Of a stretch of DNA of 64,000 nt, positions 12,281 to 61,382 are shown in pieces (position 1 is the stretch's first letter; every line of letters starts with the position of its first letter). The notes under the pieces were generated by a model that saw only the letters and a program-made list of their open reading frames with translations, had not been told where the DNA came from and made no database searches. The DNA comes from Planctomycetota bacterium (GTDB lineage: Bacteria > Planctomycetota > UBA11346): contig JBBQSO010000012.1 in the NCBI GenBank assembly GCA_038213805.1, forward strand, positions 1 through 64,000, in the 5' to 3' direction. The position numbers were made by a program, and so were the translations under genes.

Positions 12281-13801
12281 ATGTACCGATCCGCCCTGCT
12301 CCGCTCGATCGCCTTAGCGACCTGCCTCCTGCCGCGCCTCGCCGCGGAGGTCAAGCTGCCGGCCATCCTCGGCGACAACGCCGTGCTGCAGGCAGATGCG
12401 CCGCTGCCGATCTGGGGCACGGCCGCGGTCGATGAAGCGGTGACCGTGACGGTCGCCGGTCAGAGCCAGAGCACCAAGGCCGGGGCCGACGGCCACTGGC
12501 GGGTGAGGCTCGCGCCGCTCAAGACCGGAGGGCCGCTCGAACTCACCGTGGCCGGCACCAATACCATCGTGCTGAAGAACCTGCTGGTCGGCGAGGTGTG
12601 GGTCGGCTCCGGGCAGTCCAACATGGAGTTCGCCCTGAAGAACGCCAACGACTCCGCCAAGGAGATCGCCGCCGCCGACTTCCCGAAGATCCGTCTCTTC
12701 ACCGTGACCAAGAAGACCAGCGCCGAGCCGCTCGCCGACTGCACCGGGAAGTGGGTCGAGTGCGCGCCGGCGACGGTGCCGGGTTTCTCGGCGGTGGCGT
12801 ACTTCTTCGGACGCGAACTGCACCAGAAGCTCGGCGTGCCGGTCGGCCTGATCCACACCTCGTGGGGCGGCACCCCGGCCGAGGCCTGGACCAGCCGCCC
12901 GGCGCTCGCCGGCAACGACGAGTTCAAGGACGCGGCCGCGACCTGGGACAAGCGCCTGGCCGACCTGCCCAAGGCGCAGGCCAGGTTCGAGCAGGAGCAG
13001 GCCGCGTGGAAGACCGCCGCCGCCGAGGCCAAGGCCGCGGGCAAGCCGGAGCCGAAGAAGCCGCGCGCGCCGGACGGCGCCAACTCGCCCAACCGCCCGT
13101 CGTCGCTCTACAACGGCATGCTCGCGCCGCTCATCCCCTATGCGATCCGCGGCGCGATCTGGTACCAGGGCGAGGCCAACGCCGGCCAGCCGCTGAAGTA
13201 CCGCACCCTGCTGCCGCTAATGATCGGCGACTGGCGGCAGGCCTGGGGCGAAGGCGATTTCCCGTTCTACATCGTGCAACTCGCCAACTACATGGCGCGC
13301 CGCCCGGAGCCGGTCGAGAGCAGCTGGGCCGCGTTGCGCGAGGCGCAGTGGCTGACCACGACGACGGTAAAGAACACCGGCCTGGCGACGATCATCGACG
13401 TCGGCATGGCCGACAACATCCACCCCACCGACAAGCAGACCGTCGGCCACCGCCTGGCGGTGAACGCCCTGGCCCAGACCTACGGCAAGGACAATGAGAG
13501 TTCGGGGCCGGTGTTCGCTGCGATGAAAGTCGACGGTGCGAAAGTTGTGCTGTCCTTCACCCATTTCGGCGGCGGTCTGGTCGCCAAGGGCGGCGGCGCG
13601 CCCACCGGGTTCGCCATCGCCGGCGAGGACAAGCACTTCGTGTGGGCGACCGCGACCATCGTCGGCGACACCGTGGTGGTGACGAGCGACAAGGTCGCCA
13701 AGCCGACCGCGGTGCGCTACGCCTGGGCGGACAACCCCGAGTGCGACCTGTACAGCAAGGCGGAGCTGCCGGCGGTGCCGTTCCGGACGGACCTGCCGTG
13801 A
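12281..13801 (+). CDS. Secreted sialate O-acetylesterase (SASA/SGNH) family protein
   Basis: Signal peptide, GEVWVGSGQSNM, WYQGE, DNIHP, VRYAW..NP. Confidence 0.92.
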   Translation: MYRSALLRSIALATCLLPRLAAEVKLPAILGDNAVLQADAPLPIWGTAAVDEAVTVTVAGQSQSTKAGADGHWRVRLAPLKTGGPLELTVAGTNTIVLKNLLVGEVWVGSGQSNMEFALKNANDSAKEIAAADFPKIRLFTVTKKTSAEPLADCTGKWVECAPATVPGFSAVAYFFGRELHQKLGVPVGLIHTSWGGTPAEAWTSRPALAGNDEFKDAAATWDKRLADLPKAQARFEQEQAAWKTAAAEAKAAGKPEPKKPRAPDGANSPNRPSSLYNGMLAPLIPYAIRGAIWYQGEANAGQPLKYRTLLPLMIGDWRQAWGEGDFPFYIVQLANYMARRPEPVESSWAALREAQWLTTTTVKNTGLATIIDVGMADNIHPTDKQTVGHRLAVNALAQTYGKDNESSGPVFAAMKVDGAKVVLSFTHFGGGLVAKGGGAPTGFAIAGEDKHFVWATATIVGDTVVVTSDKVAKPTAVRYAWADNPECDLYSKAELPAVPFRTDLP

Positions 13802-14128
13802 ACTGAGGGCGCGGCGCGGGCGATGCGCCGCGCGCGTGATCGGGGATCGGCCGGGAGGCCTAGGACGCGCGACGGGTGGCGCCGCAGGATGCCGCGGCCA
13901 GGACCAGGGGCGCGACCCGCCTCGCCATGCCGTGTGCGGATCGCGCGCCGCGGCCGGGGTCGCCCGGGCCTTCACCGGATTTTGATCGTTTCCCCGCCAG
14001 AAGCGAACCGGGTATTCGCGGGATCCTCCTCGATCGCCGCTGCGGATCTACACCCGCAGGGCGTTAGTGCTGGGACGCGCGCACTGCTGTGCGCCGCGCC
14101 CAACACTCCTTGATCGAGGACCATTCCC

Positions 14129-19531: not shown

Positions 19532-19551
19532 ACCGTCGATGATTCATGACG

Positions 19552-19594
19552 ACACCGGACCCGGGAGGAGAACCTTCCCGGGTCCGGTGTTTTC
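19552..19594 (+). terminator. Intrinsic terminator hairpin
   Basis: Perfect 15-bp stem ACACCGGACCCGGGA / TCCCGGGTCCGGTGT followed by T residues, between convergent genes. Confidence 0.75.
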
Positions 19595-19705
19595 ATGGGC
19601 GGCTGACGGCTCTTGGCGTCATGGCGGCCGGAATCGTCGCCCGCGCAACCAGCCGCATCCAGCCGCGCGCATCTGCAGTTCCCGGCAGCGGGCGTGCCCG
19701 CGACC

Positions 19706-21379
19706 TCACTGCGCGTAGCAGGCGTCCGGGAAGCCATCGCCGTCGGCGTCGCGCAGCCACTGCAGCGCGGCGCCCCAGGCCTGCGCAGCGGGCACGCCGG
19801 GACCGGGCGGATGTGCGAACCAGCGCGGCGCGGCGAAGGCGCCATCGCCATCTGCGCCACGGCAGGGCAGCCCGTCGAGGCCGTACAGCACCAGCGCGCC
19901 GAGGAAGGCGAGCACCTCCTGGCGCTGCGCGATGGGCGCGCAGCGGTAGCGCGCCGCGCTGTCCGCGGCCTCGCCGCCGTGGCGGCGGATGACCGCATCG
20001 AGGTCGAGGCTGGCGCCATCGTGGCCGTAGGGCGCGCAGCTGCCGACGCCCCACAGCGGCGGGGTGCGGAACCGCGTCACCACGCTGCCGTCGAACTGCA
20101 CCTGGTGGAAGGCCGGGCCGAGGTCGTGGCTGGCAAGATCGCTGTAGAGGCCGGCGACGCGCAGCGTCCCGCCGCACGTGGGCGACTCGAGCTGCGCCAC
20201 CAGCGCACCTGCGCTGTCTTCAGCGACCGTCAGCGCGGCGAAGCGGCGGTCGCGTCCGCGCAGTTCCCAGTCGGGGACGTGGCAGGCCGCGCAGCCCAGC
20301 GCGGCGAAGTGCGCACGGCCGGCCTCCACCCCGGGCTGCGCACGCCGCTCTGCGGGGGCGGGGAGGTTCAGCAGGTAATGCTCGATCAGATCGAGGTCGC
20401 CCGCGGTGAGCTCGGCGCACACCCCGTCCCCGTCCGGGTCGTCCAGGCTGAAGCCACCCGCATCGCGGCGCAGGCCGCAATCGGCAGGCGTGCCGAGGTG
20501 CACCTGCGCAGCGCCGCTGGGCGGCGTCGCCGCCCAACCGTCGTGGCGCGGCTCCGCCGCCAGCGCGGGATCCTCGGCCTGGATCCCGGCGTGGATCATG
20601 AAGGCGCCGACCACCAGGCTGCGCAGGCTCAGGCCGTGCGCGACGCCCGGGGTCTCGCCCCAGCCGAAGGCCTGCAGCGCGAAATCGAAGCCCGCGACGC
20701 CCGGGTCGTCGAGGCGCCGCGCGCCGGGTACGCGGTGGTGGTCAAGATCCAGGTACCAGACGTGCAACTGCGGGTCGAGATCCGGGCGGCCGTCGCCATC
20801 GGCGTCGTCGAAGCGGCCGTAGGAGACCTGCGCTCCGACGCCCGTGGCCACGATCGCGCGCACGCCAGCGGCCTCAGCCGCGCTGACCATGCCGTCGCCG
20901 TCGCGGTCGACCGTGGCGAGCAGCGCGCTGCGGATGCCCCCGGCGAGCTGCTCGATGAGCCCCGCCCCGCGCAGATGCGGGGTGCGGCGACCGGACGGGC
21001 CGTTCTTGGGGATCACCGGTCCGCTGCCACCGTCCCCGCCGGCGCGCTCGTGGCACAGCGCGCAGGAGGTCACCGGGCCGAGGCGCAGCGCCGCGGTGCG
21101 GCCATCCGCGAGGCGCGGTACCGCGAGCGGTTCGCCGGCGCCGTCGCGCGCGCTGAAGCTGCGTCGGAACAGGTCGCGCCCGCGCCCCCAGGCCAGCCAC
21201 GGATCGTGCGCGACCAGCCACGCGCTGGTGCCCGGACGGTCGCTCGCGCCCTGTACCACGCGCAGGCGTGGCAGCTCCGCGTCGTCGCGTTCGGCGCCGT
21301 GGGCGGTCAGCGCGCCCCACCCCGCGAGCAGCAGCGTGACGGCTGCGCGGGCCGGGCTCAGCGTGGCAGCGCGCAGCAC
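19706..21379 (-). CDS. Di-heme oxidoreductase (DHOR/DUF1111-like) protein with EF-hand
   Basis: Two CxxCH (SCALCH, GCAACH), TPHLRGAG, LYSDLASHDLG, RTPPLWGVG..PYGHDG, HGGEA; EF loop DRDGDGMVSAAE; start approximate. Confidence 0.85.
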   Translation of the reverse strand: MLRAATLSPARAAVTLLLAGWGALTAHGAERDDAELPRLRVVQGASDRPGTSAWLVAHDPWLAWGRGRDLFRRSFSARDGAGEPLAVPRLADGRTAALRLGPVTSCALCHERAGGDGGSGPVIPKNGPSGRRTPHLRGAGLIEQLAGGIRSALLATVDRDGDGMVSAAEAAGVRAIVATGVGAQVSYGRFDDADGDGRPDLDPQLHVWYLDLDHHRVPGARRLDDPGVAGFDFALQAFGWGETPGVAHGLSLRSLVVGAFMIHAGIQAEDPALAAEPRHDGWAATPPSGAAQVHLGTPADCGLRRDAGGFSLDDPDGDGVCAELTAGDLDLIEHYLLNLPAPAERRAQPGVEAGRAHFAALGCAACHVPDWELRGRDRRFAALTVAEDSAGALVAQLESPTCGGTLRVAGLYSDLASHDLGPAFHQVQFDGSVVTRFRTPPLWGVGSCAPYGHDGASLDLDAVIRRHGGEAADSAARYRCAPIAQRQEVLAFLGALVLYGLDGLPCRGADGDGAFAAPRWFAHPPGPGVPAAQAWGAALQWLRDADGDGFPDACYAQ

Positions 21380-37567: not shown

Positions 37568-37680
37568 CGAGCTACAAGCTACGAGAAACATATTCCGCTG
37601 GCTCAGCGCACGAGCGAGTCCGCATCCGACCCAACGGGTCCCACGTTGGCAGGCCAGGTCTTCACTCGTAGCTCATGGCT
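37568..37680. repeat. Inverted pair of GAGCTAC/CTCGTAG heptamer tracts
   Basis: 37568-37585 pairs with 37665-37680. Confidence 0.65.
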
Positions 37681-38762: not shown

Positions 38763-39158
38763 GACTCATCCTTCAAACGCGGTCCGGAACGGTGGTGAGC
38801 GCGGTGGGATCGCGATCGGGCGGGCGAGTCATACACCGCCAGGAATGCGATGCCAGCGCTTGCTGGATGGACAATTCCATCTGGCGACGGAACAATGGGA
38901 TAGGTCGAAGGACTGGGGCGCGCGACAGGCGTTTTCCAGCGTTCTCGGCTCACCTGGCGTGGCAGATGATTCCGCGGTCTGCCGAACTGCCCGCGCATCG
39001 CTCCACGCGCTCCCTGATGGCTTCTCCGCGGTGGGTTTGGGGCCTTCGCCACACGGTCACGGGGCCGGACACGAAGCGCTGGACATGAGGCGCATGCGTG
39101 TGCCATCATTCCCGCCGCGCCGCCATCCGCAGCGCTGATCCATCTTCAGGAGTCCATC

Positions 39159-40154
39159 ATGCCCCGTCCCCGCATCAGCACCGTATCCGCTCGCAGTGTA
39201 AGAGCGCTCCTCGGCGTCCTCGCACTCGCCGCGCCGCTCGCGGCAGCTCAGGCCAAACCGCCTAAGATCAGCACCGTCGGGGATGGCGACTTCGTCATCG
39301 GGCCCGACTACGTGAAGGCGCCGGAGATGAACGGCGCGGACGGCGCGCCCAAGGGCACGGTGCGCGACTTCGTGATGCAATCTTCCGAGAGCAAAATCTA
39401 CCCGGGACTGACCGGCGCCTACTCGCGCAAGGTCTGGGTCTACGTGCCGAAGCAGTACGTGCCAGGCACGCCGGCGCCGTTCATGGTGGTGCAGGACGGC
39501 GGCGGTTATGTCGGCCGGCTGACCACCGCGCTTGACAACCTGATCTTCGCGCAGCGCGTGCCGGTGATGGCTGCGGTGTTCCTCGATTCCGGCGGCGGCG
39601 ATTCCAAGGGCAGCGAGCGCGGTCTGGAATACGACACGGTCTCGGCCAAGTACGCGCAGTTCATCGAGACCGAGGTGCTGCCGCGCGTCACCAGCGAGTA
39701 CAAGGTCACCTTCACCAAGGACCCGGAGGGCCGCGCGACCATGGGCGGCAGCTCGGGCGCCGCCTGTGCGTTCACCATGGCGTGGTTCCGGCCCGACCTC
39801 TACCGCCGCGTGCTCAGCTATTCGGGCACCTTCGTCGCCCAGGAATCGCCGGACAATCCCGCTTCGCCGCACGGCGCCTGGGAATACCACGAGCACTTCA
39901 TCCCGCAGAGCCCGGTGAAGCCGCTGCGCATCTACCTGCAGGTCGGCGAGCATGACAACGGCGAAGGCCGGCCCGAGAACACCTACCACAACTGGCCCAT
40001 GGCCAACGAGCGCATGGCTGCGGTACTCAAAGCCAAGGGCTACCACTACCGCTACGAGTTCTGCAAGGGCGCCGGCCACGTCGACGGTCGCGTCATCGAC
40101 CAGACCCTGCCCAGCGCGCTGGAATGGCTGTGGCGAGGGTATGCGGGCAAGTAG
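39159..40154 (+). CDS. Secreted enterochelin-esterase-like alpha/beta hydrolase
   Basis: VYVP, VQDG, RGLEYD, nucleophile elbow GGSSG, GH near C-terminus. Confidence 0.9.
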   Translation: MPRPRISTVSARSVRALLGVLALAAPLAAAQAKPPKISTVGDGDFVIGPDYVKAPEMNGADGAPKGTVRDFVMQSSESKIYPGLTGAYSRKVWVYVPKQYVPGTPAPFMVVQDGGGYVGRLTTALDNLIFAQRVPVMAAVFLDSGGGDSKGSERGLEYDTVSAKYAQFIETEVLPRVTSEYKVTFTKDPEGRATMGGSSGAACAFTMAWFRPDLYRRVLSYSGTFVAQESPDNPASPHGAWEYHEHFIPQSPVKPLRIYLQVGEHDNGEGRPENTYHNWPMANERMAAVLKAKGYHYRYEFCKGAGHVDGRVIDQTLPSALEWLWRGYAGK

Positions 40155-40162
40155 AGGGTCAA

Positions 40163-40326
40163 GAAGTCCGGAAGTCCGGAGGTCCGGAGGTCCGGAAGTC
40201 TCGTGACGCGGCGCTAGCTGACTGGATCTGTGTGGTCCGTTTCCTGGCATCCGTGCGGGCGGTCGATTGCATCCTCGGAAGCAGGGCTGTCCGACTTCCG
40301 GACTTCCGGACCCCGGACTTCCGGAC
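40163..40326. repeat. Inverted pair of octamer (GAAGTCCG-type) tandem tracts
   Basis: 40163-40200 and 40293-40326 are reverse complements flanking about 90 bp; between convergent genes. Confidence 0.8.
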
Positions 40327-40336
40327 CGCGAAGCGC

Positions 40337-42133
40337 TCAGCGCTTCGCCGACGCTGGTCGCTCGTACGCGCCGATGTCGGCGACCTTGCCCTGCGGGCGC
40401 GGCGTGCCGTCGGCGTCGTGCGACGGGAACTTCGCCGCGGGCAGGTCAGCGGCGTCGCGCGCGGGTGAGTCGTCCTGCAGGCGCCAGTCGCCCGCCGCCG
40501 GCGCGACGAAGCGCGGGTCGTCGGCGATGACTGCGCCGGCGTCGAGACCGAGCGCCTTCCAGGCGGCCAGGTCCTTGCGTCCGCCTGCGGTGAAGGTCAC
40601 GCCGGTGCGATAAAAATTGCGGTCGCAGGTGCTGGGCGCGTCGGCGAGATCGAACACAGCACCGGTGGCGATGAGGATGTTCGCATAGCACGCCGGGGCG
40701 TTGCCGGCCGCGGTCGTGGCGATGCAGGACTGCGCCGCGCCGGCGTCGGCGGCGGTGACGATGGTGCTGAAGCGCACTGTGCTGCCGGGGCTGCGGCACA
40801 GGATCGCGGTGTCCTTGTCCCAGCCGTGCGTGCGGGTGCCGGTGATGACCAGGTTCTGCAGCAGGTGCCCGGTTCCTGATACATCGATGGTCGCGTGCGG
40901 GCCGGTCATGCGCAGGCCGTCGATCTCGATGCCGCGCCCCTGCATCACCAGGCGCGCGTCCTCGATCAGGCCGCCACGCACCAGGATGCGCGCATCGGGG
41001 TGTTCGGAATTGTTGAGCGACCAGCCGCCGCCGCGTGACACCAGATGATCCATCAGCACCGGCCCGAGCTTCGGTCCGTGCATCTCCATGATGAAGGCGT
41101 GGGCGGTGCCGTACGGATTGTAGAGCGTGCTCCAGGTGTCCTCGGTGTGCTCGTAGGTGCAGTTCCAGTATTCCGAGGCGCCGGCGGGATAAGGCGAGTC
41201 GGGCCCGTTGAATGAGACCCACGCCGAGTTGCCGCCGTTGTCCTGCCCGGGGTGGGGCCAGGCCGCGTAGCAGTCGCGGTGCACGACGCGGTGCGAGTTG
41301 ATGCAGCCGAAGTGGTGCTTGCCGGCGCGGTAGACGGCGACGCGCTCGATGAGGACATCCTCGCTGCCCATGATGCGCACGCCGTAGCCGCCGTTGTCGT
41401 CCAGGCGTGCGCTGTCCTCGGCGACCAGGTCGCGGAACACCAGGTGGTGGTGCGGCGTGCCGTCCGCCGCCATCGAGCAGATGATGTCGTCCTCAACCAC
41501 CGCGCGCCAGGCGCCCTGGGACCGCGGCTGCTGGTAGGCGAAGGCCGGCAGACCTGAGAACGCCGTCGCGTCGGCGACGGGGTCGTAGAGCTTGATGCTG
41601 AGCACCCCGGCGTGCCACGTGAACGACCACGGTTTGGCCTCGGCCGCGAAGCGCTCCCAGGCGCCGGGCTCGTGGCGGAAGAGGAACACGCCGTCGACCA
41701 GCAGCGCGTAGACCGGTGCCGCGTGCGCGATGGTGTAGACGCGGCTGTTCCCCTGCTGGGCGAACTGCTGCGCGTCCAGCGCCTCACTGCCGGTGAAGCG
41801 CGGCTTGGGCGCGGACGGTTCGCCATACGCGGCGTAGGTGATGGGCTTGCCCTCTGCGCCGTCCCAGCGCGGGCGCAGGCGGGCGCGCCAGCAGCCGCCG
41901 CGCTTGAACAGCACGCGGTCGCCGGGGGCGAGGCGGGTGGACTCCACCTTGCCGAGGCTGGACCAGGCGGAACCCGGGGTGGTGCCGTCGGCGGCGTCGT
42001 GGCCTTGAGCCTGGTCGACGTGGAAGTCCTGAGCCGCTGCGGGCGTGCCGGCCATGGCGAGCGCCAGGGTGGCGAGGCAGCGCAGGAGGGATGTTCCGGA
42101 TGAGGCGGCAGACGCGGGGAGAAGCAGCATCAT
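40337..42133 (-). CDS. Secreted right-handed beta-helix (pectin-lyase-like) protein
   Basis: G.D..DGT...AW, PGDRVLFKRG, PITYAAYG; C-terminal DWRL..DSPA.D..D.DG.PR...DIGAYE; start approximate. Confidence 0.75.
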   Translation of the reverse strand: MMLLLPASAASSGTSLLRCLATLALAMAGTPAAAQDFHVDQAQGHDAADGTTPGSAWSSLGKVESTRLAPGDRVLFKRGGCWRARLRPRWDGAEGKPITYAAYGEPSAPKPRFTGSEALDAQQFAQQGNSRVYTIAHAAPVYALLVDGVFLFRHEPGAWERFAAEAKPWSFTWHAGVLSIKLYDPVADATAFSGLPAFAYQQPRSQGAWRAVVEDDIICSMAADGTPHHHLVFRDLVAEDSARLDDNGGYGVRIMGSEDVLIERVAVYRAGKHHFGCINSHRVVHRDCYAAWPHPGQDNGGNSAWVSFNGPDSPYPAGASEYWNCTYEHTEDTWSTLYNPYGTAHAFIMEMHGPKLGPVLMDHLVSRGGGWSLNNSEHPDARILVRGGLIEDARLVMQGRGIEIDGLRMTGPHATIDVSGTGHLLQNLVITGTRTHGWDKDTAILCRSPGSTVRFSTIVTAADAGAAQSCIATTAAGNAPACYANILIATGAVFDLADAPSTCDRNFYRTGVTFTAGGRKDLAAWKALGLDAGAVIADDPRFVAPAAGDWRLQDDSPARDAADLPAAKFPSHDADGTPRPQGKVADIGAYERPASAKR

Positions 42134-42338
42134 GGCTCCGCACGGGAGCCACGATAATGGGCGGATGCGCAGCGACGACCATGCGATTTCCCACATGCAT
42201 ACCGCGGCGTGTGCGCCGATGTGAGACGGAACGCCTCATTAAAAGACAGCGCGAACGCTGGCCGTTCAGCTCTGCCGGCGTTCCCAGTGCAGCCGTTGGG
42301 GCACGCTTGCCGCGGCCGACCTTGCCGGCACCCTGCCC

Positions 42339-45911: not shown

Positions 45912-46450
45912 CGGCTCACACCGCCGCGGCCCCGCTGAAAGCGCCCGTGCACGCCGCCCTGCTGATCGCCGCGGTCACCGTCGTCGCCTACCTGTTCGCC
46001 AACGTCGAGATCCAGATCGAGGGCGCCGCGGGCTGGGCCGCGGGGCTGCCGGTGTCCTTCCGCATCGACCACCATTGGGCGCTCGACTGGTTCTGGGGCG
46101 GCCGCCCGATGACCGGCTACCACGCCTGGGTGTTCAGCTTCATGGCGCTGGTCTTCCACCTGCCGTTCGCGCTGTTCGGCCGCTGGTCGCTGCGCCTTGA
46201 GGCGCGCGTGCTCGGCAGCGTCATGCTGTTCTGGATCATCGAAGACGCGCTGTGGTTCGTGTGCAATCCCGCCTTCGGCTGGTCAGCGCTGCGCCCTGGG
46301 GCGCCCGGCGAGCCGGGCTGCGCGTGGTGGCACATCCACTGGTTCCTGGGCGTGCCCACGGATTATTGGACGTTCACCGTGGTGGGTGGGCTGGTGTTGT
46401 GGTGGTCGTTCCGGGCGCCGAAGGTGGATGACGCGACGCTGGGCGCGTAA
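45908..46450 (+). CDS. Trp-rich membrane protein
   Basis: ATGA overlap; EIQIEG..GWA, TGYH, EDALWF..NP. Confidence 0.8.
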   Translation: MTAHTAAAPLKAPVHAALLIAAVTVVAYLFANVEIQIEGAAGWAAGLPVSFRIDHHWALDWFWGGRPMTGYHAWVFSFMALVFHLPFALFGRWSLRLEARVLGSVMLFWIIEDALWFVCNPAFGWSALRPGAPGEPGCAWWHIHWFLGVPTDYWTFTVVGGLVLWWSFRAPKVDDATLGA

Positions 46451-46532
46451 GACGAGACCATCGCACGCCGACCGCGCGCTGGAATTGAAGAGACGAGGTT
46501 CGCGTGGTGAGCTGCGAGGAAGGCATGTCGTT

Positions 46533-46583
46533 CTCGTAGCTCGTAGCTCGTAGCTCGTAGCTCGTAGCTCGTAGCTCGTAGCT
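46533..46583. repeat. Perfect heptamer tandem repeat (CTCGTAG)x7
   Basis: Seven perfect copies; short complementary GAGCTGCGAG at 46509-46518. Confidence 0.95.
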
Positions 46584-46735
46584 GGCGCGTAGCGAGAGAC
46601 AGAACGCGTGATGCTGCCTGCATCCAGGACTTCCGGTTCGGGGTTTCCGCGCGCGGCCGTCTCATCATGCTCAGCGGCATGCCCCTCCCGATCTCGCCTG
46701 ACAGCAGACCCGCCCTCCGCATCGCGCCGCATCGG

Positions 46736-49700
46736 ATGCTGCGCGTCCTGGCCTTTCTGGCCTTGGCCGCCTATGCGCGCACCGCCGAGCCGGCCTGGGC
46801 GCCGGAGGAGTTCGAGGCCATCTCCGGTCCGGCCTCACCGCGCGTGGCGGTGGCGGTGCGATCCGAGGGTGGTCAGTTGCGCGTGGCGGTGGAGGTGGCG
46901 AGCTTCGCTGCCGACGGATCCGGAGTCCGCATCCAGCTCGGCCTCGCCGCGGACGCCACCGTCATCCTCGACGAGCGTGCGGCCCAGGTGGTGCGTGGCG
47001 CGAGTCTGACGACCTGCACCTTCGCCACGCCGCTCGCGCCGCTCGGCGATCTGCGTCGGCTGCGCCTCGGCCTGGCGATAGCGTGGGAGGGCGGACCCGC
47101 TGGCGCTGACCGCCAGCGCGAGCGCCTGCGCCACCGCTCCGGCGCTGCCCATGCCGGCCTCGCCGCCGATCCGCGCGAGTGGCTGCCCTTCGATCTCACG
47201 GAGTACGCGCTCGCCGTCGCCGACCGCCGCAACCGCCTCGAGATCACCTTCACCCAGCCAGAGGGCGGCAAGGCGACGGTAGTGATCGAGGATGCCGTCA
47301 GCGGCCGGCGACTGCGCAATCTGGTCGGCGGGCAGCCATTCGCGGCCGGCGCGCAGCGCCTGGCCTGGGACGGGCTCGACGACCATGGCGCGGTGGTGCC
47401 GCCCGGCACCTACCGCTGGCGCTCTCTGCACCACCCGGGGATCGTGCCGGAGTACGCGATGAGCTTCGCCAACGGCGACGACACGCTCGCGCAGCTCTCC
47501 GGCTGGGGACCCAACCACACCGTCCTCAACGCGGCGACCGCGAGCGGCGCGTGGACAGTGGTGTCCGCGCCGATGACCGAGGGCGGTGACGCCATCCTCG
47601 TGCTCGACGCGCAGGGCCACAAGGTGCGCGGCATGAACGTGCCGCTCGGCATGGGCATCGCCCGCACCGCTTCGGCGATCTCCGGCGACACGCTGTACGT
47701 CGCCAATGACGGTCCGGCCTTCCTCGACCACATCGACGAGCGCGATGCGCACGCGGTGGCGCACCTCAAGATCACCCTGGCGCGCTTCGACCTGGCGCAG
47801 GGCCGGCTGCTGGAATGGAAGCCGGGTGGCAGCTTCATCGCAGTCGCCGAGGCGGAGACCCACCCGGCGGAAGACTCCGCGTGGCGCTCAGCGGGTCTGG
47901 TTGGTCTGGCCGCGCTCGGCGACCGCCTCTACCTCGCTGACCGGCGCGGCGGCCGTTTGCTGGTCCTGGATGCGGCGACCGGGGCGCAGAGCGGCGTATT
48001 CGCGCTGCCCGCGCTGGCCGGGCTCACGTCCGCCCAGGGCCGGCTGTACGCGCTGGCCGCGGGCGCGGTGGTTACCATCGATGTGCAGAGCGGCGTCACC
48101 ACCACCGTGGTGCCGGCGGCGCCGTCGCGCGATCCGGTGGCGCTCGCCGTCGATGCCGGCGGGCGCATCTACGTCAGCGACGCCGCCAGCCACACCGTGC
48201 TGATGTTCGACGCCCGCGGGCAGCCGCTGGGCGCGCTCGGCCGCCCAGGCGGGCCCTACACCGGCGCCTTCGACCGCGAGCGCATGGTCAACCCGCGCGG
48301 GCTCGCGGTGGCCGCCACCGGTTGGCTGTGGGTGACGGAGGAGCGCGCCGCGCCCAAGCGCATCGTCGCCTGGGACACCGCCACGCGCCGGGTGGTGTGC
48401 GAGAAGTTCGGCTCGCCGCCCTACGGCGGCACCGGCGCGGGCGTCGACCCCGTCGATCCCACGCGCTGGATCGGCCTTGGCGCGCAGTGGCGGATCGACC
48501 TCGCCACCCGTACCGCGCAGCCCATCGCCATCGTCGGGCCGGACCACCACGAATTCCATTACTCCTACGTACGCGATCACGGCGTCACCTATCTGATCGG
48601 CTACGGCCAGGCGACCACCATCGCGCGCGTGAACGGCGACGGCTCGGCGACGCCGGTGGCGCTGATCGCCTCGGCGCACCGCTTCAGCTTCGCCTGCGAC
48701 TGGCAACCGCCGGCGGCCTTCGTCACCGCCTTCGCCGCCGCCTATCCGGGACGCGCCGGCAAGCACGCCGACAAGGGCCCGGGTTTCGTGTGGAGCGACG
48801 CCAACGGCGACGGCGTGATGCAGCCCGGCGAGTTCGACTTCGCGACCAGCGCCGAGAGCTTCGCCGGCGCCTACTTCGGCCACGACCAGCATGACCTCAC
48901 CCTGCGCGTGCCGGTCACCGTCGGCGGGCGCCGCGTGGTGGTCGCGCTCGCCCCCAGCGGCTTCACCGCCGGCGACGCGCCGCGCTACCCGTCCCTGGCC
49001 GCGGCCTGCAGTGCGGGCGTGCCGATCGACCTCCCGGGCAACGAGGTTGAGACCACCGTCGACCGCTTCGGCGATCTGATCTGCAACGCCGAACCGGAGC
49101 TCAAGGCTTTCGCGCCCGATGGCCGGCTGCTGTGGACCCATCCCAACCGCTGGGTTGGCGTGCACGGCTCGCACGACGCGCCGTTGCCCGAGACCGGCGT
49201 GATGCAGGGGGCGCTTGGCTTCATGGGCACCGCGCCGCTGGATGCGACCAGCGACGTGTTCGTGATGAACGGCAACCACGGGCGCTACTTCATGCTCACC
49301 AGCGACGGGCTCTATGTCGACGAGTTCTTCAAGGACGTGCGCATGGGCGCGCACCTCGACACCACGCTGGTCGGGGGCGAGGCCTTTGGCGGCTGCTTTG
49401 CGCGGGGTGAGCGCGATGGGGTCTATTACCTGCAGGTGGGCGGCTACCGCGTCTACCGCATGCGCGGTCTCGACCGCCTGCAGCGCGGCCAGGGTGCCAT
49501 CACCGTCAGCCCGGCGCAGGCGATCGCCGCCGAACGCGCCATGGCCGCGCACGGCGCGATCGCCGCCAAGCCGCACGCGGCCATCATTCCGCTTGTCGCC
49601 CAGGCCCCAGCCCTGCCGGGCGAGGACCACGAGTGGCCCGCGCCGGCCGCGGCCTGGGACCGTTCCGGGCGTTTCCCGGTGCGCGTGCGCGCCGCGCACG

Positions 49701-50266
49701 ACGGGCGCATGCTGTATCTGCGCTGGGAGGTCGCCGACGATAGCCCCTGGGTCAATCGTGGCGGCGATTGGACGCTGCTGTTCAAGAGCGGCGATTCCGT
49801 CGACCTGCAGCTCGGCACCGATGCCGCCGCCAATCCCGCGCGCAGCGGGCCGGTGCCGGGCGACCTGCGCCTGCTCATTGCGCCCTTCCAGGGCAAGGAC
49901 ATCGCCGTGCTCTACCGCCACCGCCTGCCCGGCGCGACTGAACCGGTGACCTTCACCAGTCCGTGGCGTGCCGAGCGCGTGGACGAGGTGCGCCGGCTCG
50001 ACAGCGCGCGCATCGCCGTCACCGTCCAGGGCGGTGGCTACCGGGTGTCCGTTGCGATCCCGCTCGCCGATCTCGGCCTCGATGCGGTTGCCGGGCGCAC
50101 CGTCAAAGCCGACTTCGGGGTGATCTACGGCGATCCGGAAGGGCGCATCGACATGCTGCGCTCGTACTGGGCGAATCCATCCACCGGCCTCGTCAACGAT
50201 GTGCCGGGCGAAATCATGCTGACGCCTGCCGCATGGGGTACGGCGACTTTCGCGAGTGCACCATGA
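46736..50266 (+). CDS. Large secreted protein: FlgD-like Ig, NHL-like beta-propeller, CBM9-like C-terminus
   Basis: RRLRNL..WDGLDD.G..VPPGTYRW; LAVD..GRIYVSD; WSDANGDG; YLRWEV.D..GDSVDLQL..IPLADLG. Confidence 0.75.
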   Translation: MLRVLAFLALAAYARTAEPAWAPEEFEAISGPASPRVAVAVRSEGGQLRVAVEVASFAADGSGVRIQLGLAADATVILDERAAQVVRGASLTTCTFATPLAPLGDLRRLRLGLAIAWEGGPAGADRQRERLRHRSGAAHAGLAADPREWLPFDLTEYALAVADRRNRLEITFTQPEGGKATVVIEDAVSGRRLRNLVGGQPFAAGAQRLAWDGLDDHGAVVPPGTYRWRSLHHPGIVPEYAMSFANGDDTLAQLSGWGPNHTVLNAATASGAWTVVSAPMTEGGDAILVLDAQGHKVRGMNVPLGMGIARTASAISGDTLYVANDGPAFLDHIDERDAHAVAHLKITLARFDLAQGRLLEWKPGGSFIAVAEAETHPAEDSAWRSAGLVGLAALGDRLYLADRRGGRLLVLDAATGAQSGVFALPALAGLTSAQGRLYALAAGAVVTIDVQSGVTTTVVPAAPSRDPVALAVDAGGRIYVSDAASHTVLMFDARGQPLGALGRPGGPYTGAFDRERMVNPRGLAVAATGWLWVTEERAAPKRIVAWDTATRRVVCEKFGSPPYGGTGAGVDPVDPTRWIGLGAQWRIDLATRTAQPIAIVGPDHHEFHYSYVRDHGVTYLIGYGQATTIARVNGDGSATPVALIASAHRFSFACDWQPPAAFVTAFAAAYPGRAGKHADKGPGFVWSDANGDGVMQPGEFDFATSAESFAGAYFGHDQHDLTLRVPVTVGGRRVVVALAPSGFTAGDAPRYPSLAAACSAGVPIDLPGNEVETTVDRFGDLICNAEPELKAFAPDGRLLWTHPNRWVGVHGSHDAPLPETGVMQGALGFMGTAPLDATSDVFVMNGNHGRYFMLTSDGLYVDEFFKDVRMGAHLDTTLVGGEAFGGCFARGERDGVYYLQVGGYRVYRMRGLDRLQRGQGAITVSPAQAIAAERAMAAHGAIAAKPHAAIIPLVAQAPALPGEDHEWPAPAAAWDRSGRFPVRVRAAHDGRMLYLRWEVADDSPWVNRGGDWTLLFKSGDSVDLQLGTDAAANPARSGPVPGDLRLLIAPFQGKDIAVLYRHRLPGATEPVTFTSPWRAERVDEVRRLDSARIAVTVQGGGYRVSVAIPLADLGLDAVAGRTVKADFGVIYGDPEGRIDMLRSYWANPSTGLVNDVPGEIMLTPAAWGTATFASAP

Positions 50267-51975
50267 GCGCCGCACGACTGCTGCTACGCCTGGCGCTGCT
50301 CGCCCTGCCGCTGGCGGCGGCCAGGGCAGAAACACTGGTCTGCGCCGGCGTGCTCGGTAATTCCGGCGAGCAAGGTCGCGACCTGGCGCGCTGCGCAGCG
50401 GCGCCGGCGCGCGGCCTGGGAGTGGTCTGCGACCGCTTCGGCACATTGTGGGACCGCGCCGGTTCCGGCGTGCTCGCCCGCTACGCCGTCGATGGACGCA
50501 TGCTCGCCCAGTATCGCATCCCCGCCGAGAACGATCGCCGCGACCAGCTCGCCCTGGTTGGCGACACCCTGGTGCTGCTCATCAATGGTCGCCTGCACAC
50601 CCTGGCGATCACCGCGCTGCCGGACAGCGCGGCCACGCCGATGACGATCGAGGCGACCTGCCTGTCGCCTTCCGCGTGGCACGGCACGGTCGCCATCGCC
50701 ACCAAGCAGGGCCTCGCCACCTGGGCGGTCGCTGAAGAGGCGGCACCGCGCCCGGTCGCCGCGCTGGCCGGAATCGAGGCGGTCGAGATCGGCGCGGACG
50801 GCGCGCTCTACGCCATGGTCGAGTGGCAGGTGCACAAGTTCGTGGCCGGCGCCGAGATCAGCGATGGCTGGCCGCGCGCCGCGCCCGGCGAGCGGCCGCA
50901 GCTCCTCGACGGCTGGTGGTATGGCCACGCCTGGAACAGCACCATCAAGCGCTGCGACGCCGACCTCGCACCGCAGCCGGGCGTGGTGCTGGGCGGCGCC
51001 TCGGGTTCGTTCATCGGCCACCTCGACCAGAGCGCCGACCTGGTCAACGGTCGCGGTCTAGCGCGGCTGGATCGCGACCTGTTCGCGGTCTCGGGCTTCA
51101 CCGGCACGCTGCAGCTGCTGGCCTGGAACGAAAATGCGCGGCAGTTCGCCGTGGTGCGGCGCATCGCCGCGCTGCCGCGCTGTCCGGCGCTGGGACTCGA
51201 CCGCGCCGGGGACGTCTGGCAGTGGAACGGCGCCTGGCGCTGGGACGACCGGCCCGACGCGCCGCTGCGCGACGGCGTCACGCCACCGGAGGAGCTCGGC
51301 CAAGCGGTGATGCTGGATGACGACGTGATGGTCGCGCCCGGCGTGATGTGGGGCAAGCCGACGCTGATGCACGGCCGCCTCGATGGCGAGGTCGCGGTCG
51401 AGCGCATCGAGGAACATTGCACGCTGCGCCGCAATCTGGTCGGCAGCGCCACTTACCGCGATGGCGATCACCTGGTGCTGCTGACCATCGACGCTGCTGG
51501 CGCCGGCCACGCCTTCGCCATCGATCCGGTGGGCCATTTCCGCGGCGATCTCGGGGCGGTCGAACTCGCCACCGCGACGCCGGTGGTGGCGTGGACCGCG
51601 TTGGCCATGGCTGGCGCCGATGCGCTGCTCGCCACGGGCGACGGCTGTGTGCTGGAGTTCGCGCGCGCTGGCGGAGGCTGGCACGAAACGCGACGCTGGC
51701 GTTCCTGGGGCGCCGGTGAGACGGAGCACTTCGGCGCGGTGATCCACATCAGTAGCGATGCGCACACCCTGGCCGTCTCCGACCGCGACCGCCACCGCGT
51801 GCTCTGCTTCGCTACCGGCGGTGGCAGCCCGCGTGCGACCTTCGGCCGCTGCGACGAGGCTGGCGCCGACCTCGCCACGCTGAGCGCGCCGACCACCGTC
51901 GCGGTGCGTGGCGAGCGCGTCGTGGTCTTCGATGCCGGCAACCAGCGCTTGGTGAAGCTGCTCAGCGCGCCGTGA
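50263..51975 (+). CDS. Secreted beta-propeller (NHL-like) protein
   Basis: ATGA overlap, signal peptide, VSDRDRHRVL, LSAPTTV..VFDAGNQRLVK. Confidence 0.7.
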   Translation: MSAARLLLRLALLALPLAAARAETLVCAGVLGNSGEQGRDLARCAAAPARGLGVVCDRFGTLWDRAGSGVLARYAVDGRMLAQYRIPAENDRRDQLALVGDTLVLLINGRLHTLAITALPDSAATPMTIEATCLSPSAWHGTVAIATKQGLATWAVAEEAAPRPVAALAGIEAVEIGADGALYAMVEWQVHKFVAGAEISDGWPRAAPGERPQLLDGWWYGHAWNSTIKRCDADLAPQPGVVLGGASGSFIGHLDQSADLVNGRGLARLDRDLFAVSGFTGTLQLLAWNENARQFAVVRRIAALPRCPALGLDRAGDVWQWNGAWRWDDRPDAPLRDGVTPPEELGQAVMLDDDVMVAPGVMWGKPTLMHGRLDGEVAVERIEEHCTLRRNLVGSATYRDGDHLVLLTIDAAGAGHAFAIDPVGHFRGDLGAVELATATPVVAWTALAMAGADALLATGDGCVLEFARAGGGWHETRRWRSWGAGETEHFGAVIHISSDAHTLAVSDRDRHRVLCFATGGGSPRATFGRCDEAGADLATLSAPTTVAVRGERVVVFDAGNQRLVKLLSAP

Positions 51976-52040
51976 GCCACGAGTTTCGCATCACGAGCTG
52001 CGAGTGACGGCATTCGCGTCTCGCGTCTCGTAGCTCGCGA
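51973..52040. repeat. Degenerate heptamer hairpin (GAGCTGCGAG / CTCGTAGCTC)
   Basis: Same family as 46533 and 37568; starts at the stop codon. Confidence 0.6.
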
Positions 52041-52109
52041 CCCGTCGCACCCGGACGGGGAAGGCCATGGCTTCCCGTCGCTCCCCGCTATGGTCGCGCC
52101 CCACGCGCG

Positions 52110-54113
52110 ATGGCAGATGATCCGACCATCTTCGATCTGCTCGGACCCGGGCAGCCGGAGCGGCCTGTGCCGGTCCCGGACGTAGCCGATGGCGGCGAGC
52201 TGACTGATGCGCTGATCGCTGCGGCGGTGGCCGCGCTGCGCGCGCGGGGGCCGCTGCTGCCCCCGGCGGATATCCCGCCCGCGCCTCACGGCCAGCGCGT
52301 CTGGGTCTATGACACCGAGGTCTTCCCCAACCTGGTGCTGCACGTCTTCACCGACGGGCGCAGCACCGAGGTCTTCCATCAGGGGACCTGGGACGCGCTT
52401 CGGACCTTCGTCAGCGATCCGGGCAAAGTCCTGGCCGGCTTCAACAGCTCGGGCTACGACGACCCGGTGCTGCGCCGCATCCTCGCCCGACCGCACCCCA
52501 CGTTGGCGGATATCTTTGCGCTCTCGGGCGAGATCATCGGCGGCGAGCTGCCGCGTGAGCTGCGCTGGGGGCCGGTGCCGTGGGCGCACGGCATCGATGT
52601 GCTGCAGCTGCTCAATGGCCGCGGTTCGCTCAAGGAGTGGGAGTGCCGCCTGGGGCTCGACCTGGTCGCGGAGTCGCCGTGCGATTTCGCCGCGCCGCTG
52701 CCGGCTGGCGCCATCGGCGAGGTGCTGCGCTACTGCCTCAACGACGTCGCGGCGACCGTGCGGCTGCTGCTCGCCAACTGGGACCTGGTGGCGATGCGCG
52801 CGGTGCTGCAGGGCATCTATGGCCAATCCGACACCATCTATGCCACCACCGAGGCCGGCATCGCCGAGGCGACCCTGGCCGACCTGGCGCGCCGCGCCAG
52901 CGGGGTGACGCGCAGCCAGCTCAAGGCCGCGGCCGCCGCCAATCCCGACAACCGCCCGCGCACGTGGCCGCTGGATGGATTGATCGCGCCGCGCGTCACT
53001 TTCGTCACCCCGCCCTTCTGCACCCTGCTTGCGGCGGTACGGGCCGGGTCGCTGGTGATCGGCGCGCGCGGTGGCGCGCTCGACCTGCCGCAGCTCCCCG
53101 GTCAGGTGTTCACGCACGACGGCACGCTCTATCAGCTCGGCACCGGCGGCCTGCACTCGCTCGACCAGCCCGGCTCGTGGCGCGCCGACACGGACACCGC
53201 CCTCATCGATCTCGACGTGACCAGCTACTATCCGTCGCTGATCATCAACGAGGGCTGGCACCCGCGCCACTATGGTCCGGCCTTCGTTGAGCACCTGCGC
53301 GGCATGCGCGACCGCCGCGTCGCCGCCAAGAACGCCGGCGACAAGCGCACCGCCACCGCGCTCAAGATCGTCATCAACTCAATCTACGGCAAGCTCAACG
53401 ACGCCTACAGCAGCATCCGCTCGGTGCCCGACGCCTTCCGCGTCACGCTCAATGGCCAGCTGCTGCTGCTCATGCTCATCGAGGGGCTGTCCAGCGCCGG
53501 CGCCGAGGTGCTGAGCGCCAACACCGACGGCGTGACGGTACGCGTACCGCGCGTGCAGCTCGCGGCGGTCGAGGCCGCAGCCGCCGCCTGGGAACGCGCC
53601 AGCGCGCTCACCCTGGAGCGCACGTCCTATCGCGCCCTGCACCGCCGCGACGTGAACAACTACCTGGCCATCACCGCCGCCGGCGAGCTCAAGACCCGCG
53701 GCGCCTTCGGCGATGGCGCTAAGGGCGATGGCGCGGTGGTGCGCGAGGCCGCGGTGGCCTGGCTGGTCGAGGGCATCGAACCGTCCGAGACCGTGGCCCG
53801 CTGCAGCGACGTGCGCGCCTTCCTGTTCTACCAGCGTACGCGCAGCGACGCGCTGCTGGTGCACGGCGAGCGCGCACTCGGCCGCATCGCGCGCTGGTAT
53901 GTCGGCTTCGGCGGCCCCACCCTGCGCCGGCGCAGCCTCGCCGAAGGCACCCTCACCACCGTCGCCCATGGCCACCACGCGCGCCTCGCCATGGATATCG
54001 CCGGCTGGACGATGGCCGACCTCACCACCCTTGACCGCAGCGCCTATGTCGCCGAGGCGTGGCGCCTGATCAACGCGGTGGCGCCGCGCGAGGGGCTGGT
54101 GGGAGACGGATGA
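52110..54113 (+). CDS. Phage-type family-B DNA polymerase with 3'-5' exonuclease
   Basis: ExoI YDTE, ExoII FNSSGYD, ExoIII YCLND; GTGGLH; motif A DVTSYYPS; motif B KIVINSIYGK; motif C NTDG; RDVNNY. Confidence 0.92.
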   Translation: MADDPTIFDLLGPGQPERPVPVPDVADGGELTDALIAAAVAALRARGPLLPPADIPPAPHGQRVWVYDTEVFPNLVLHVFTDGRSTEVFHQGTWDALRTFVSDPGKVLAGFNSSGYDDPVLRRILARPHPTLADIFALSGEIIGGELPRELRWGPVPWAHGIDVLQLLNGRGSLKEWECRLGLDLVAESPCDFAAPLPAGAIGEVLRYCLNDVAATVRLLLANWDLVAMRAVLQGIYGQSDTIYATTEAGIAEATLADLARRASGVTRSQLKAAAAANPDNRPRTWPLDGLIAPRVTFVTPPFCTLLAAVRAGSLVIGARGGALDLPQLPGQVFTHDGTLYQLGTGGLHSLDQPGSWRADTDTALIDLDVTSYYPSLIINEGWHPRHYGPAFVEHLRGMRDRRVAAKNAGDKRTATALKIVINSIYGKLNDAYSSIRSVPDAFRVTLNGQLLLLMLIEGLSSAGAEVLSANTDGVTVRVPRVQLAAVEAAAAAWERASALTLERTSYRALHRRDVNNYLAITAAGELKTRGAFGDGAKGDGAVVREAAVAWLVEGIEPSETVARCSDVRAFLFYQRTRSDALLVHGERALGRIARWYVGFGGPTLRRRSLAEGTLTTVAHGHHARLAMDIAGWTMADLTTLDRSAYVAEAWRLINAVAPREGLVGDG

Positions 54114-54150
54114 GCTGCGAGTCGCGAGGCTCGTAGCTCGAAGCTCGCGC
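54111..54150. repeat. Degenerate heptamer hairpin after the PolB stop
   Basis: TGAGCTGCGAGTCGCGAGGCTCGTAGCTCGAAGCTCGCGC. Confidence 0.6.
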
Positions 54151-54208: not shown

Positions 54209-54613
54209 ATGCGCGCCACCCTGCCCGCCTTCCGCGTCTGTCGCAGCCCCATCCACGGTCGCGGTGTCTTCGCCGCCACGCGCATCCCGCGCCGCATGAA
54301 GCTCGGCGAGGTCTCCGGCGAGCTGTGCCGTCTGCCACAGGCGCGCCAGGCCATGCAGGCCCGCAGCGTCATCCATCTTGTCGAGCTCAGCCGGCGCTGG
54401 GCACTGGACTGCTCGCGTGGCAATCATTTCCGCCACCTCAACCATTCCTGCCAGGCGAACTGCTACCTGCGCATCTGGCGCCGCCGTGTCGAAGTCTACA
54501 GCCGCGGCGTCATTGCCCGTGACCACGAGTTGACCGTCGATTACCGCAGCACCCAGCATCCCGGCGGCATGGTGTGCGGCTGCGGCCGCCCTGGGTGCCG
54601 TTCGCTGCTGTGA
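54209..54613 (+). CDS. SET-domain protein (lysine methyltransferase fold)
   Basis: SPIHGRGVFA, RHLNHSC, ELTVDY, post-SET CGCGRPGC. Confidence 0.92.
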   Translation: MRATLPAFRVCRSPIHGRGVFAATRIPRRMKLGEVSGELCRLPQARQAMQARSVIHLVELSRRWALDCSRGNHFRHLNHSCQANCYLRIWRRRVEVYSRGVIARDHELTVDYRSTQHPGGMVCGCGRPGCRSLL

Positions 54614-61239: not shown

Positions 61240-61382
61240 CGCCGCGGGGAGACGGCTCGTCGTCGGGCTATTGCGAGCTGCGAGCTGTGAGGCGCAAAGC
61301 GTTGCCGGTGCGCGCCTCGATGACCTGGTGGCACGCCGGCAGTCGTCTTGCCTGGACGGTGCAGGATGGCTAGGGTGCGGGG

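Follow-up and report, generated by a model that had tools for sequence, protein, structure and literature searches.

A phage-type family-B DNA polymerase kept in planctomycete chromosomes, with a candidate clamp-binding peptide at its N-terminus

An intact phage-type polymerase gene in a planctomycete contig

We analysed a stretch of 64,000 nucleotides (hereafter the window) of contig JBBQSO010000012.1, from the assembly GCA_038213805.1 of a Planctomycetota bacterium, and in it a gene, polB, that codes for a phage-type family-B DNA polymerase (PolB) with a 3'-5' exonuclease. Its frame is one uninterrupted open reading frame (ORF) of 667 codons that starts with ATG. An earlier note on this DNA, made from the sequence, had read polB as a captured phage replicase retained for a host role. 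The positions of the gene, of its motifs and of the surrounding features are collected in Table 1.

The exonuclease motifs of PolB enzymes are defined as DxE for ExoI, Nx3[FY]D for ExoII and Yx3D for ExoIII. For the polymerase motifs we used the patterns DxxSLYPS (motif A), Kx3NSxYG (motif B) and DTD, with the second aspartate catalytic (motif C). All the strings that the earlier note had listed as intact, i.e. ExoI to ExoIII, motifs A, B and C, GTGGLH, NTDG and RDVNNY, are indeed present in the 667-aa translation. We aligned polB with 24 relatives, phage members included, with identities down to 42%. D68, E70, D117, Y208, D212, D369, K419, N423, G427 and the N471-T472-D473-G474 stretch are invariant in all 24, and the complete set of exonuclease positions (D68/E70, N112/Y116/D117 and Y208/D212) is invariant or nearly so in the same sequences. 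The first aspartate of motif C is replaced by asparagine throughout the phage family, and the catalytic D473 is retained. As NTDG is invariant in the 24 relatives, including those of phages, it represents a family trait rather than decay or a lesion.

Profile searches placed the protein in a phage family. The phrog_1252 'DNA polymerase' profile matches residues 57-658 of polB with an E-value of 7.8e-117, whereas the NCBIfam Pol II equivalog NF004421 yields 26.1 bits, far under its cut-off of 570. The Pfam DNA_pol_B family gives 13.3 bits, under the cut-off of 23. A tblastn search of 50,697 phage records returned 828 records matching polB. The top record is a 40-kb circular Caudoviricetes genome (42% identity) that encodes a portal protein, a terminase, a capsid protein and a VirE-type primase-helicase, followed by Rhizobium, Escherichia, Loktanella and other siphoviruses at ~30% identity. 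An exhaustive profile-free search with polB collected 4160 cluster representatives at E <= 0.001, many of which have an N-terminal primase-helicase fusion or long C-terminal additions. Relatives at 44-49% identity are fused to primase/superfamily 3 (SF3) helicase domains, and the fused proteins include P0030-32 and P0121-124.

The AlphaFold model of polB, built on an alignment, has a mean predicted local distance difference test score (pLDDT) of 87.1 and a predicted template modelling score (pTM) of 0.84, with residues 660-667 disordered. Foldseek comparisons of this model with the PDB retrieved archaeal PolB and Pol alpha enzymes (E-values of 1e-14 to 1e-11, template modelling (TM) scores of ~0.5), and no protein-primed polymerases (pPolB/piPolB) were found among the 50 top PDB matches. 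Among predicted structures, the matches are tailed-phage PolBs, including those of crAss-like phages, with TM scores up to 0.79, and the closest ESM-Atlas clusters are 85-100% viral. Profiles and structures thus agree that polB is of the phage type rather than a Pol II, as had been noted from its motifs.

Table 1. Features of the polB locus and of the phage regions compared with it. Positions are those of the window, except where a locus (L number) is given; L001 and L003 are loci of related genomes described in the text.
Feature	Position	Strand	Remarks
polB	52110..54113	+	667-aa phage-type family-B DNA polymerase (phrog_1252) with 3'-5' exonuclease
Clade-specific N-terminal extension	52110..52280	+	residues 1-57
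Candidate beta-clamp-binding peptide DDPTIFDLL	52116..52142	+	residues 3-11; core T6-I7-F8-D9 at 52125-52136
ExoI VYDTEVFPN	52305..52331	+	residues 66-74 (D68, E70)
ExoII GFNSSGYDD	52437..52463	+	residues 110-118 (N112, Y116, D117)
ExoIII YCLND	52731..52745	+	residues 208-212 (Y208, D212)
GTGGLH	53139..53156	+	phage PolB family signature, residues 344-349
Motif A DLDVTSYYPS	53208..53237	+	residues 367-376 (D369)
Motif B KIVINSIYG	53364..53390	+	residues 419-427
Motif C SANTDGV	53514..53534	+	residues 469-475 (D473); family-typical variant of DTDS
RRDVNNY	53643..53663	+	residues 512-518; divergent counterpart of KxY motif
Presumed promoter/leader	52037..52109	+	stretch upstream of polB, conserved in L001 and L003 as far as the ATG, which is itself conserved
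Host intergenic hairpin/heptamer element	51995..52036	+	5' of polB
Hairpin element	54112..54139	+	directly after the polB stop codon; 12-bp stem; possible transcript-end hairpin
FlgD_ig/NHL protein	46667..50266		1199 aa; in the 5.6-kb segment
670-aa protein	49963..51975		no Pfam family; in the 5.6-kb segment
CAjan processivity-factor region	L055 1-197; L058 69-1022		
RHEph04 processivity-factor region	L056 1-197		

Conserved gene order and purifying selection in related genomes

A scan of 185,579 species-representative genomes yielded 53 loci. Three of them are in Planctomycetota, namely L001, L003 and L002, with identities to polB of 93%, 84% and 69%, respectively. L001 is collinear with the window from the gene upstream of polB through to the end of the L001 contig. 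L003 is collinear on both flanks of polB, save for a two-gene indel of 5.6 kb on the upstream side; in that genome, polB comes directly after the glycosyltransferase gene, with the same leader and ATG. Thus, in the synteny comparison that the earlier note had called for, the gene order around polB is kept in two related genomes. The L002 gene is flanked on one side by a zinc-type alcohol dehydrogenase gene and on the other by genes for an unknown protein, a prepilin-type protein, LpxR and a kinase-receiver protein. No phage genes were found around it by family and PHROG searches of these neighbours.

We sampled three of the 50 loci outside Planctomycetota, all in Bacillota or Actinomycetota, namely in Paenibacillus (L007, 9992-12499), Criibacterium (L013, 9998-12526) and Adlercreutzia (L023, 9974-12709). 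In all three, integrase, helicase, primase and RecE-like nuclease genes are found around the polymerase gene, and the polymerase carries a C-terminal fusion to an Erf-like single-strand annealing domain.

Selection was estimated from pairwise Nei-Gojobori ratios of non-synonymous to synonymous substitution rates (dN/dS) between polB and its three planctomycete counterparts. The ratios are 0.19 for L001 (dS 0.19), 0.25 for L003 (dS 0.37) and 0.26 for L002 (dS 0.89, near saturation). Those of neighbouring genes, five in each comparison, are 0.12-0.23 for L001 and 0.20-0.35 for L003, with similar dS values. Since both dN/dS and dS are alike, polB diverges in step with its neighbours and under a similar constraint, i.e. 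it is under purifying selection like the host genes next to it. In addition, the catalytic residues are invariant across the 17 sequences of the polB clade described below, whose identities go down to 54%.

Phylogenetic position of the planctomycete polymerases

The tree was built with 75 of the 257 collected proteins of the family: 17 close relatives, 44 proteins at 36-50% identity and 14 more distant ones as an outgroup. Fragments, the full-length protein P0012 and most of the group at 30-37% identity were left out. We used an IQ-TREE quick search with the LG+C20 posterior mean site frequency (PMSF) model, and the Shimodaira-Hasegawa-like approximate likelihood-ratio test (SH-aLRT) as the only measure of support. 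polB and its 16 closest relatives form a single clade (17/17 rows, SH-aLRT 100) on a stem of length 0.56. This clade is nested in a larger one of 59 rows (support 95). A protein of phage MW202897 is also in it, as are 12 of the 13 proteins that have an N-terminal fusion. The planctomycete clade thus lies inside a family that has a bona fide tailed phage and primase-helicase fusions among its members.

For the known groups of PolBs we refer to Kazlauskas et al. 2020 (PMC7544198), here and below to the accessible part of the article and of its supplement. The crAss-like and HelPrimPolB groups are described there as having a divergent MotifC and KxY motif, and the crAss-like entries of the supplement carry GGLHS, SANTDG and RD[VI]NNY. 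Judging from these shared signatures, the polB family corresponds to those two groups. The N-terminal PrimPol and SF3 helicase domains that define the HelPrimPolB fusions are absent from polB, which has a 57-residue extension only.

In this classification, polB might belong to an already described cellular PolB clade, G3 or the Pol II-like G1, and be nothing new. G3 spans eight bacterial phyla, clusters with crAss-like phage PolBs and is proposed to be virus-derived, and the supplement has Planctomycetes entries, including a 564-aa protein with SANTDG (PMC7544198). However, the synapomorphy given for G3 is a conserved glutamate in MotifC (PMC7544198), and there is no glutamate in residues 467-477 of polB (VLSANTDGVTV). 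Similarly, ExoII reads GWN in G1 (PMC7544198) and GFN in polB, which reaches 26 of the 570 bits required by the Pol II model. In G2, ExoI lacks conservation and there is no ExoIII (PMC7544198), whereas both are intact in polB. The nearest relatives of polB are primase-helicase fusions and a tailed phage, and the N-terminal peptide of its clade was found in the searched part of the supplement in one unrelated fungal protein only. Membership of polB in a described clade is therefore very unlikely, with the proviso that G3 was compared by its description.

Genomic surroundings of polB

Pfam families were found for 28 of 33 ORFs spread over the window and none for the other 5. They include no integrase, primase, helicase, terminase, capsid or other virion family in the whole 64 kb. 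The genes present code for Lon, a hybrid histidine kinase, RsfS, arabinose catabolism, a LysR regulator and an MGDG-synthase-like glycosyltransferase, as well as for a SET-domain protein, a GSDH-ricin protein and a ThuA-DUF7133-cytochrome c protein. The homologues of Lon that carry a source name all come from Planctomycetota, at identities of 96, 93, 88 and then 75-60%, before a fall to ~50% in other phyla, which makes the host a member of an uncultured planctomycete lineage. When 11 neighbours of polB were compared with PHROGs, two had matches. That of the LysR regulator is a family of unknown function. The GSDH-ricin protein has piecewise matches to families named 'toxin', 'tail protein' and 'Hoc-like', which we put down to shared lectin or Ig-like domains. 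The orphan status of polB in the window, as described in the earlier note, is thus borne out by both searches.

The same holds for the composition, said to be host-like. The GC content at positions 52001-54000 is 0.714, within the range of 0.674-0.761 found along this ~71% GC window, and the GC content at third codon positions (GC3) of polB is 0.89, compared with 0.82-0.95 for the other long ORFs. In the L002 genome, which has 65% GC, the GC3 of polB is 0.80 and that of its neighbours 0.77-0.83. Thus, the composition of polB follows that of each host.

These data bear on the idea that polB is the leftover of a decayed prophage or integrated element, still intact by chance and devoid of a host function. 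The family is overwhelmingly viral, and in other bacterial genomes it sits in integrated elements, as at the three sampled loci. In the four planctomycete genomes, however, no other element gene remains. Catalytic residues that are invariant over the whole clade, dN/dS ratios of 0.19-0.26, a composition fully ameliorated in hosts of 65% and 71% GC and the gain of a conserved N-terminal peptide by the clade all argue against decay, and we regard a leftover of this kind as highly improbable.

Repeats are found on both sides of the gene. Three copies of the element GAGCTGCGAG..CTCGTAGCTC are present on the + strand of the window, at 46509, 51995 and 54112, where 0 are expected. The first copy precedes the upstream two-gene indel and is followed by a perfect tandem array, (CTCGTAG) x7.3, at 46533-46583. 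The heptamer CTCGTAG itself has 15 matches in the window compared with 1.5 expected, with scattered intergenic copies at 37568-37675, 51994-52037, 54130-54147 and 61274-61284. Folding of the flanking hairpins as RNA gave energies no better than those of shuffled sequences (z about -1), and we regard them as members of a repeat family rather than as established structures. In L001, the heptamer is found upstream of polB; in L003, neither the heptamer nor the element is present near the gene. Because of this absence, the element cannot mark the limits of a unit and is a young repeat of the host, not an edge of the captured gene. The bracketing of polB by the heptamer hairpins of the host, from which the earlier note had argued, is therefore real on both sides but has no bearing on the capture. 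In L002, another heptamer run, GCGCACT, is found just upstream of polB.

The segment that is missing from the otherwise collinear L003 corresponds to positions 46428-52036 of the window (5.6 kb) and contains two genes. As the GAGCTGCGAG..CTCGTAGCTC element bounds it on both sides, this indel may have arisen at the repeats. Between the segment and polB, a leader of ~75 nt is conserved in the three close genomes, as seen in an upstream alignment of the four genomes. A repeat search around polB gave low-identity chance pairs only, and none of the terminal repeats, inverted or direct, by which a mobile unit could be recognised.

Could polB nevertheless belong to a minimal element that is still mobile, e.g. 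a self-replicating island or a phage satellite, with further parts that escaped recognition? The presence of the hairpin/heptamer element on both sides of the gene and that of two neighbours of 670 and 632 aa without a Pfam family might be taken to point in that direction. However, L003 has polB at the same place without the repeats, and the 670-aa gene belongs to a separate indel that is absent from L003. Furthermore, neither an integrase nor terminal inverted repeats nor a target duplication was found around polB, and its flanks are collinear in the related genomes. An element of this type is extremely improbable.

Two neighbours deserve mention. A gene for a small SET-domain protein is found 95 nt 3' of polB on the same strand, at 54209-54613 (+) in the window, 3031-3648 in L001 and 12994-13443 in L003. 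It is not found next to polB in L002, and no functional link to polB is evident. In L002, a 355-aa protein without a Pfam family is encoded ~2 kb upstream of polB on the opposite strand (917-1981, -). It matches the PADLOC candidate PDC-S60 (E 8.2e-31) over profile positions 6-173 of 906.

Phage-derived genes are often exapted for defence. A captured polymerase might thus serve in anti-phage defence or counter-defence by interfering with related phages, e.g. as a competitor for the clamp or for the primed DNA of the phage. The PDC-S60 match near the L002 gene, although limited to 168 of the 906 profile positions, would fit such a role. However, PADLOC has no match for polB or for the three window neighbours tested (3/3), and a partner gene kept at all loci is lacking, the SET-domain gene being shared by the window, L001 and L003 but not by L002. 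polB lies among metabolic and envelope genes and not in a defence island, and the stable synteny and dN/dS ratios equal to those of housekeeping neighbours are unlike those of fast-turnover defence loci. We therefore consider a defence function unlikely.

A candidate clamp-binding peptide in the N-terminal extension

In each of the 17 clade rows, the exonuclease domain is preceded by 38-95 additional residues. This extension is absent from the 58 other rows of the tree, several of which have other N-terminal additions (primase-helicase fusions). In the AlphaFold model of polB, residues 1-27 are disordered, and residues 33-45 form a helix (pLDDT ~93) packed on the enzyme. Within the extension, T6, I7, F8 and D9 alone are invariant (17/17 clade rows) and L10 is nearly so, while the next ~20 residues vary freely. 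The peptide is also found in P0012, which is outside the tree, so that all 18 full-length members of the clade have it. In two basal members its sequence is QRTIF and QPTIF, and in the others (D/E)(D/P)PTIF. The bacterial clamp-binding consensus is QL[S/D]LF, and its version in Pol II is QLGLF, according to the accessible part of PMC3716654.

We predicted the complex of two copies of the Escherichia coli beta clamp (Swiss-Prot) with residues 1-60 of polB, for which we used a 17-row alignment of our own. The scores were 0.66, 0.67 and 0.66 in three runs and 0.00 for the best control; among reference cases, 116 of 157 solved complexes attain the 0.66 mark, as do 2 of 215 pairs that are mismatched. 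At least 33% of the contacts are common to the runs, and the pLDDT of the partner is at least 45. Residues 3-8 and 10-11 of polB are predicted to contact clamp residues 172, 174-177, 242-243, 246-247, 344, 346, 360 and 362-365. The peptide is thus placed in the cleft between domains II and III of the clamp, which we take to be the canonical peptide cleft of solved clamp-peptide complexes. Gly-174 and Pro-363 are among the clamp contacts named in PMC3716654, in the part available to us. The prediction supports clamp binding by the peptide but does not demonstrate it.

Clamp-type motifs in the wider polymerase family

Clamp-type motifs also occur elsewhere in the family. In 17 of 257 other family proteins, outside the polB clade, a Q-type clamp motif, Qx[S/T/D..][L/I/M]F, such as QQSLF, QRTLF, QMSLF, QLDLF, QLGLF and the like ends 0-6 residues from the C-terminus (P0024, P0026, P0027, P0029, P0041, P0096, P0099, P0157, P0161, P0180, P0211, P0228, P0233, P0243, P0244, P0246 and P0252). 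By chance, 0.35 such tails are expected from the interior rate, and 200 tail shuffles produced 0.5 on average and never more than 2, the 257 proteins being related sequences rather than independent trials. P0188 alone begins with a Q-type motif (MQTTLF...). The solo relatives nearest to the polB clade (P0024, P0026, P0027, P0029 and P0041) end with QQS[LI]F, three of them in the form QQS[LI]FD(II/P), and these tails closely resemble the TIFDL[IL] of the clade. The C-terminal motifs suggest that phage or mobile-element PolBs recruit the clamp of their host.

Directly upstream of their PolB gene, the phages CAjan and RHEph04 have a gene with the annotation 'DNA polymerase processivity factor'. 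The CAjan factor is weakly DnaN-like, with E-values of 1.7e-4 for Pfam DNA_pol3_beta_2 (under the cut-off) and 0.01 for beta clamps of the PDB. Based on the C-terminal motifs and on these adjacent processivity factors, the family appears to work with beta-type clamps, of the phage or of the host, and the planctomycete clade would therefore use the host's clamp. The PolBs of CAjan and RHEph04 both begin with a similar peptide, ..G[FL]FW[QD]D.., possibly the phage PolBs' own clamp-docking site.

Other features of the window and of L003

Two octamer arrays of opposite orientation, GAAGTCCG x4.8 and GACTTCCG x4.4, are found at 40163-40200 and 40293-40327 of the window, between the convergent genes 39018..40154 (+) and 40337..42235 (-). 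At the left end of the window (72-413), on the 3' side of an FHA-GAF-HD gene, a 108-nt unit is repeated 3.2 times with 64% matches and 17% indels. In L003, the counterparts of the GSDH-ricin and ThuA-DUF7133 genes (13516-20276) are in broken or shortened frames, and the DNA is alignable over its full length. The broken frames may reflect assembly frameshifts or real decay.

Discussion

polB is an intact, phage-type polymerase gene of single origin, fixed in planctomycete chromosomes, under purifying selection and unaccompanied by other phage genes. The reading of the gene as a captured phage replicase is upheld by the single clade, the conserved synteny, the dN/dS ratios and the orphan context. 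We consider it reasonably probable that polB is, more specifically, a domesticated, clamp-tethered, proofreading accessory polymerase. An ancestor of this uncultured Planctomycetota lineage would have captured a phage family-B polymerase once, and the gene would since have been inherited as an ordinary chromosomal gene, while its phage partners, i.e. the primase-helicase and the phage clamp, would have been lost. The disordered N-terminal peptide, (Q/D/E)-x-T-I-F-D-L, is predicted by the modelled complex to bind in the hydrophobic cleft on the beta sliding clamp of the host and so to tether the enzyme. By analogy with Pol II, the tethered polymerase might act as an accurate accessory enzyme on primed DNA, be it in the filling of gaps, in repair synthesis or in restart.

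Several points weigh against this interpretation. As regards the evolutionary part, of the 18 full-length members of the clade, 4 have a known genomic context (those of the window, L001, L002 and L003), and the other members are called cellular solely from the common N-terminal extension. The tree comes from a quick search without bootstrap and does not settle the exact sister of the clade, and the virus-to-cell direction rests on the distribution of the family, not on a rooted test. The Nei-Gojobori ratios are rough at a GC3 of ~0.9, and the dS of 0.89 for L002 is close to saturation. As regards the tethering, DPTIF fits the QL[S/D]LF consensus at positions 3-5 only (3/5), and the glutamine of the clamp motif is missing in 16 of the 18 clade members. 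In the complex prediction, the E. coli clamp is a stand-in from another phylum, the alignment of the peptide was one of our own and the fold of the partner is uncertain (pLDDT 46-49). Since solved clamp-peptide complexes exist, the high score may also reflect memory of them. As regards the cellular role, no damage-response operator was recognised upstream of polB in the four-genome alignment.

A wider reading combines these elements. polB would represent a fourth independent domestication of a viral PolB in Bacteria, from crAss-like/HelPrimPolB stock, unlike G1 to G3 and confined to one uncultured Planctomycetota lineage. A glutamine-less N-terminal clamp peptide would rewire it to the host replisome. 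Dependence on clamps would be family-wide, with some phages supplying their own clamp and others hijacking that of the host through C-terminal QxSLF tails. We put this combination forward tentatively, being almost evenly divided over it and leaning slightly to doubt.

According to PMC7544198 and PMC11348598, bacteria had no ancestral PolB, and the few lineages of PolBs found in them were taken from viruses and are rare. Both the class of enzyme and the notion that bacterial PolBs derive from viruses are established. What is new is the group of the donor, the confinement to a planctomycete lineage and the N-terminal clamp-type peptide. We found no description of a planctomycete PolB, or of a domesticated phage PolB of this kind, in the literature covered, which left out most subscription papers. 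The locus provides a clean, datable case from a different viral donor group, with phage relatives that are still recognisable. The domestication step is visible or at least predicted, with the phage partners replaced by a peptide that would plug into the host sliding clamp. polB thereby offers a testable model of how a viral replicase turns into a cellular repair enzyme. If confirmed, (D/E/Q)xTIFDL would add an unusual N-terminal variant to the known forms of clamp-binding peptides. The tails of the family also suggest that phage PolBs hijack host clamps, a strategy that has received little description.

How does polB compare with known systems? It shares its sequence family and signatures with the crAss-like and HelPrimPolB enzymes of the EpsilonN-like clade (PMC7544198; phrog_1252). 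In contrast with these, it stands alone in the chromosome, without a replication-module or virion gene, and belongs to its own clade with a clade-specific N-terminal extension. The PolBs of the siphoviruses CAjan (Seuratvirus) and RHEph04 (Kleczkowskavirus) are ~30% identical to polB over ~90% of the length. They are phage replicases with their own clamp, whereas polB has no adjacent clamp gene and would need that of the host. Similarly to polB, G3 enzymes are bacterial chromosomal PolBs akin to those of crAss-like phages and proposed to be virus-derived (PMC7544198). By the description of that group, the absence of the MotifC glutamate sets polB apart from it.

The best-known bacterial counterpart is E. 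coli Pol II (G1). polB belongs to a different PolB clade, with GFN instead of GWN and NTDG instead of DTDS, and is ~120 residues shorter. Its candidate clamp peptide is N-terminal and mostly devoid of the glutamine. Nevertheless, both are bacterial chromosomal family-B polymerases with proofreading, and Pol II is also thought to be virus-derived (PMC7544198), the origin that we propose for polB. Finally, Pol II is tethered to the beta clamp by its terminal peptide QLGLF (PMC3716654), a mode of attachment that for polB is predicted only.

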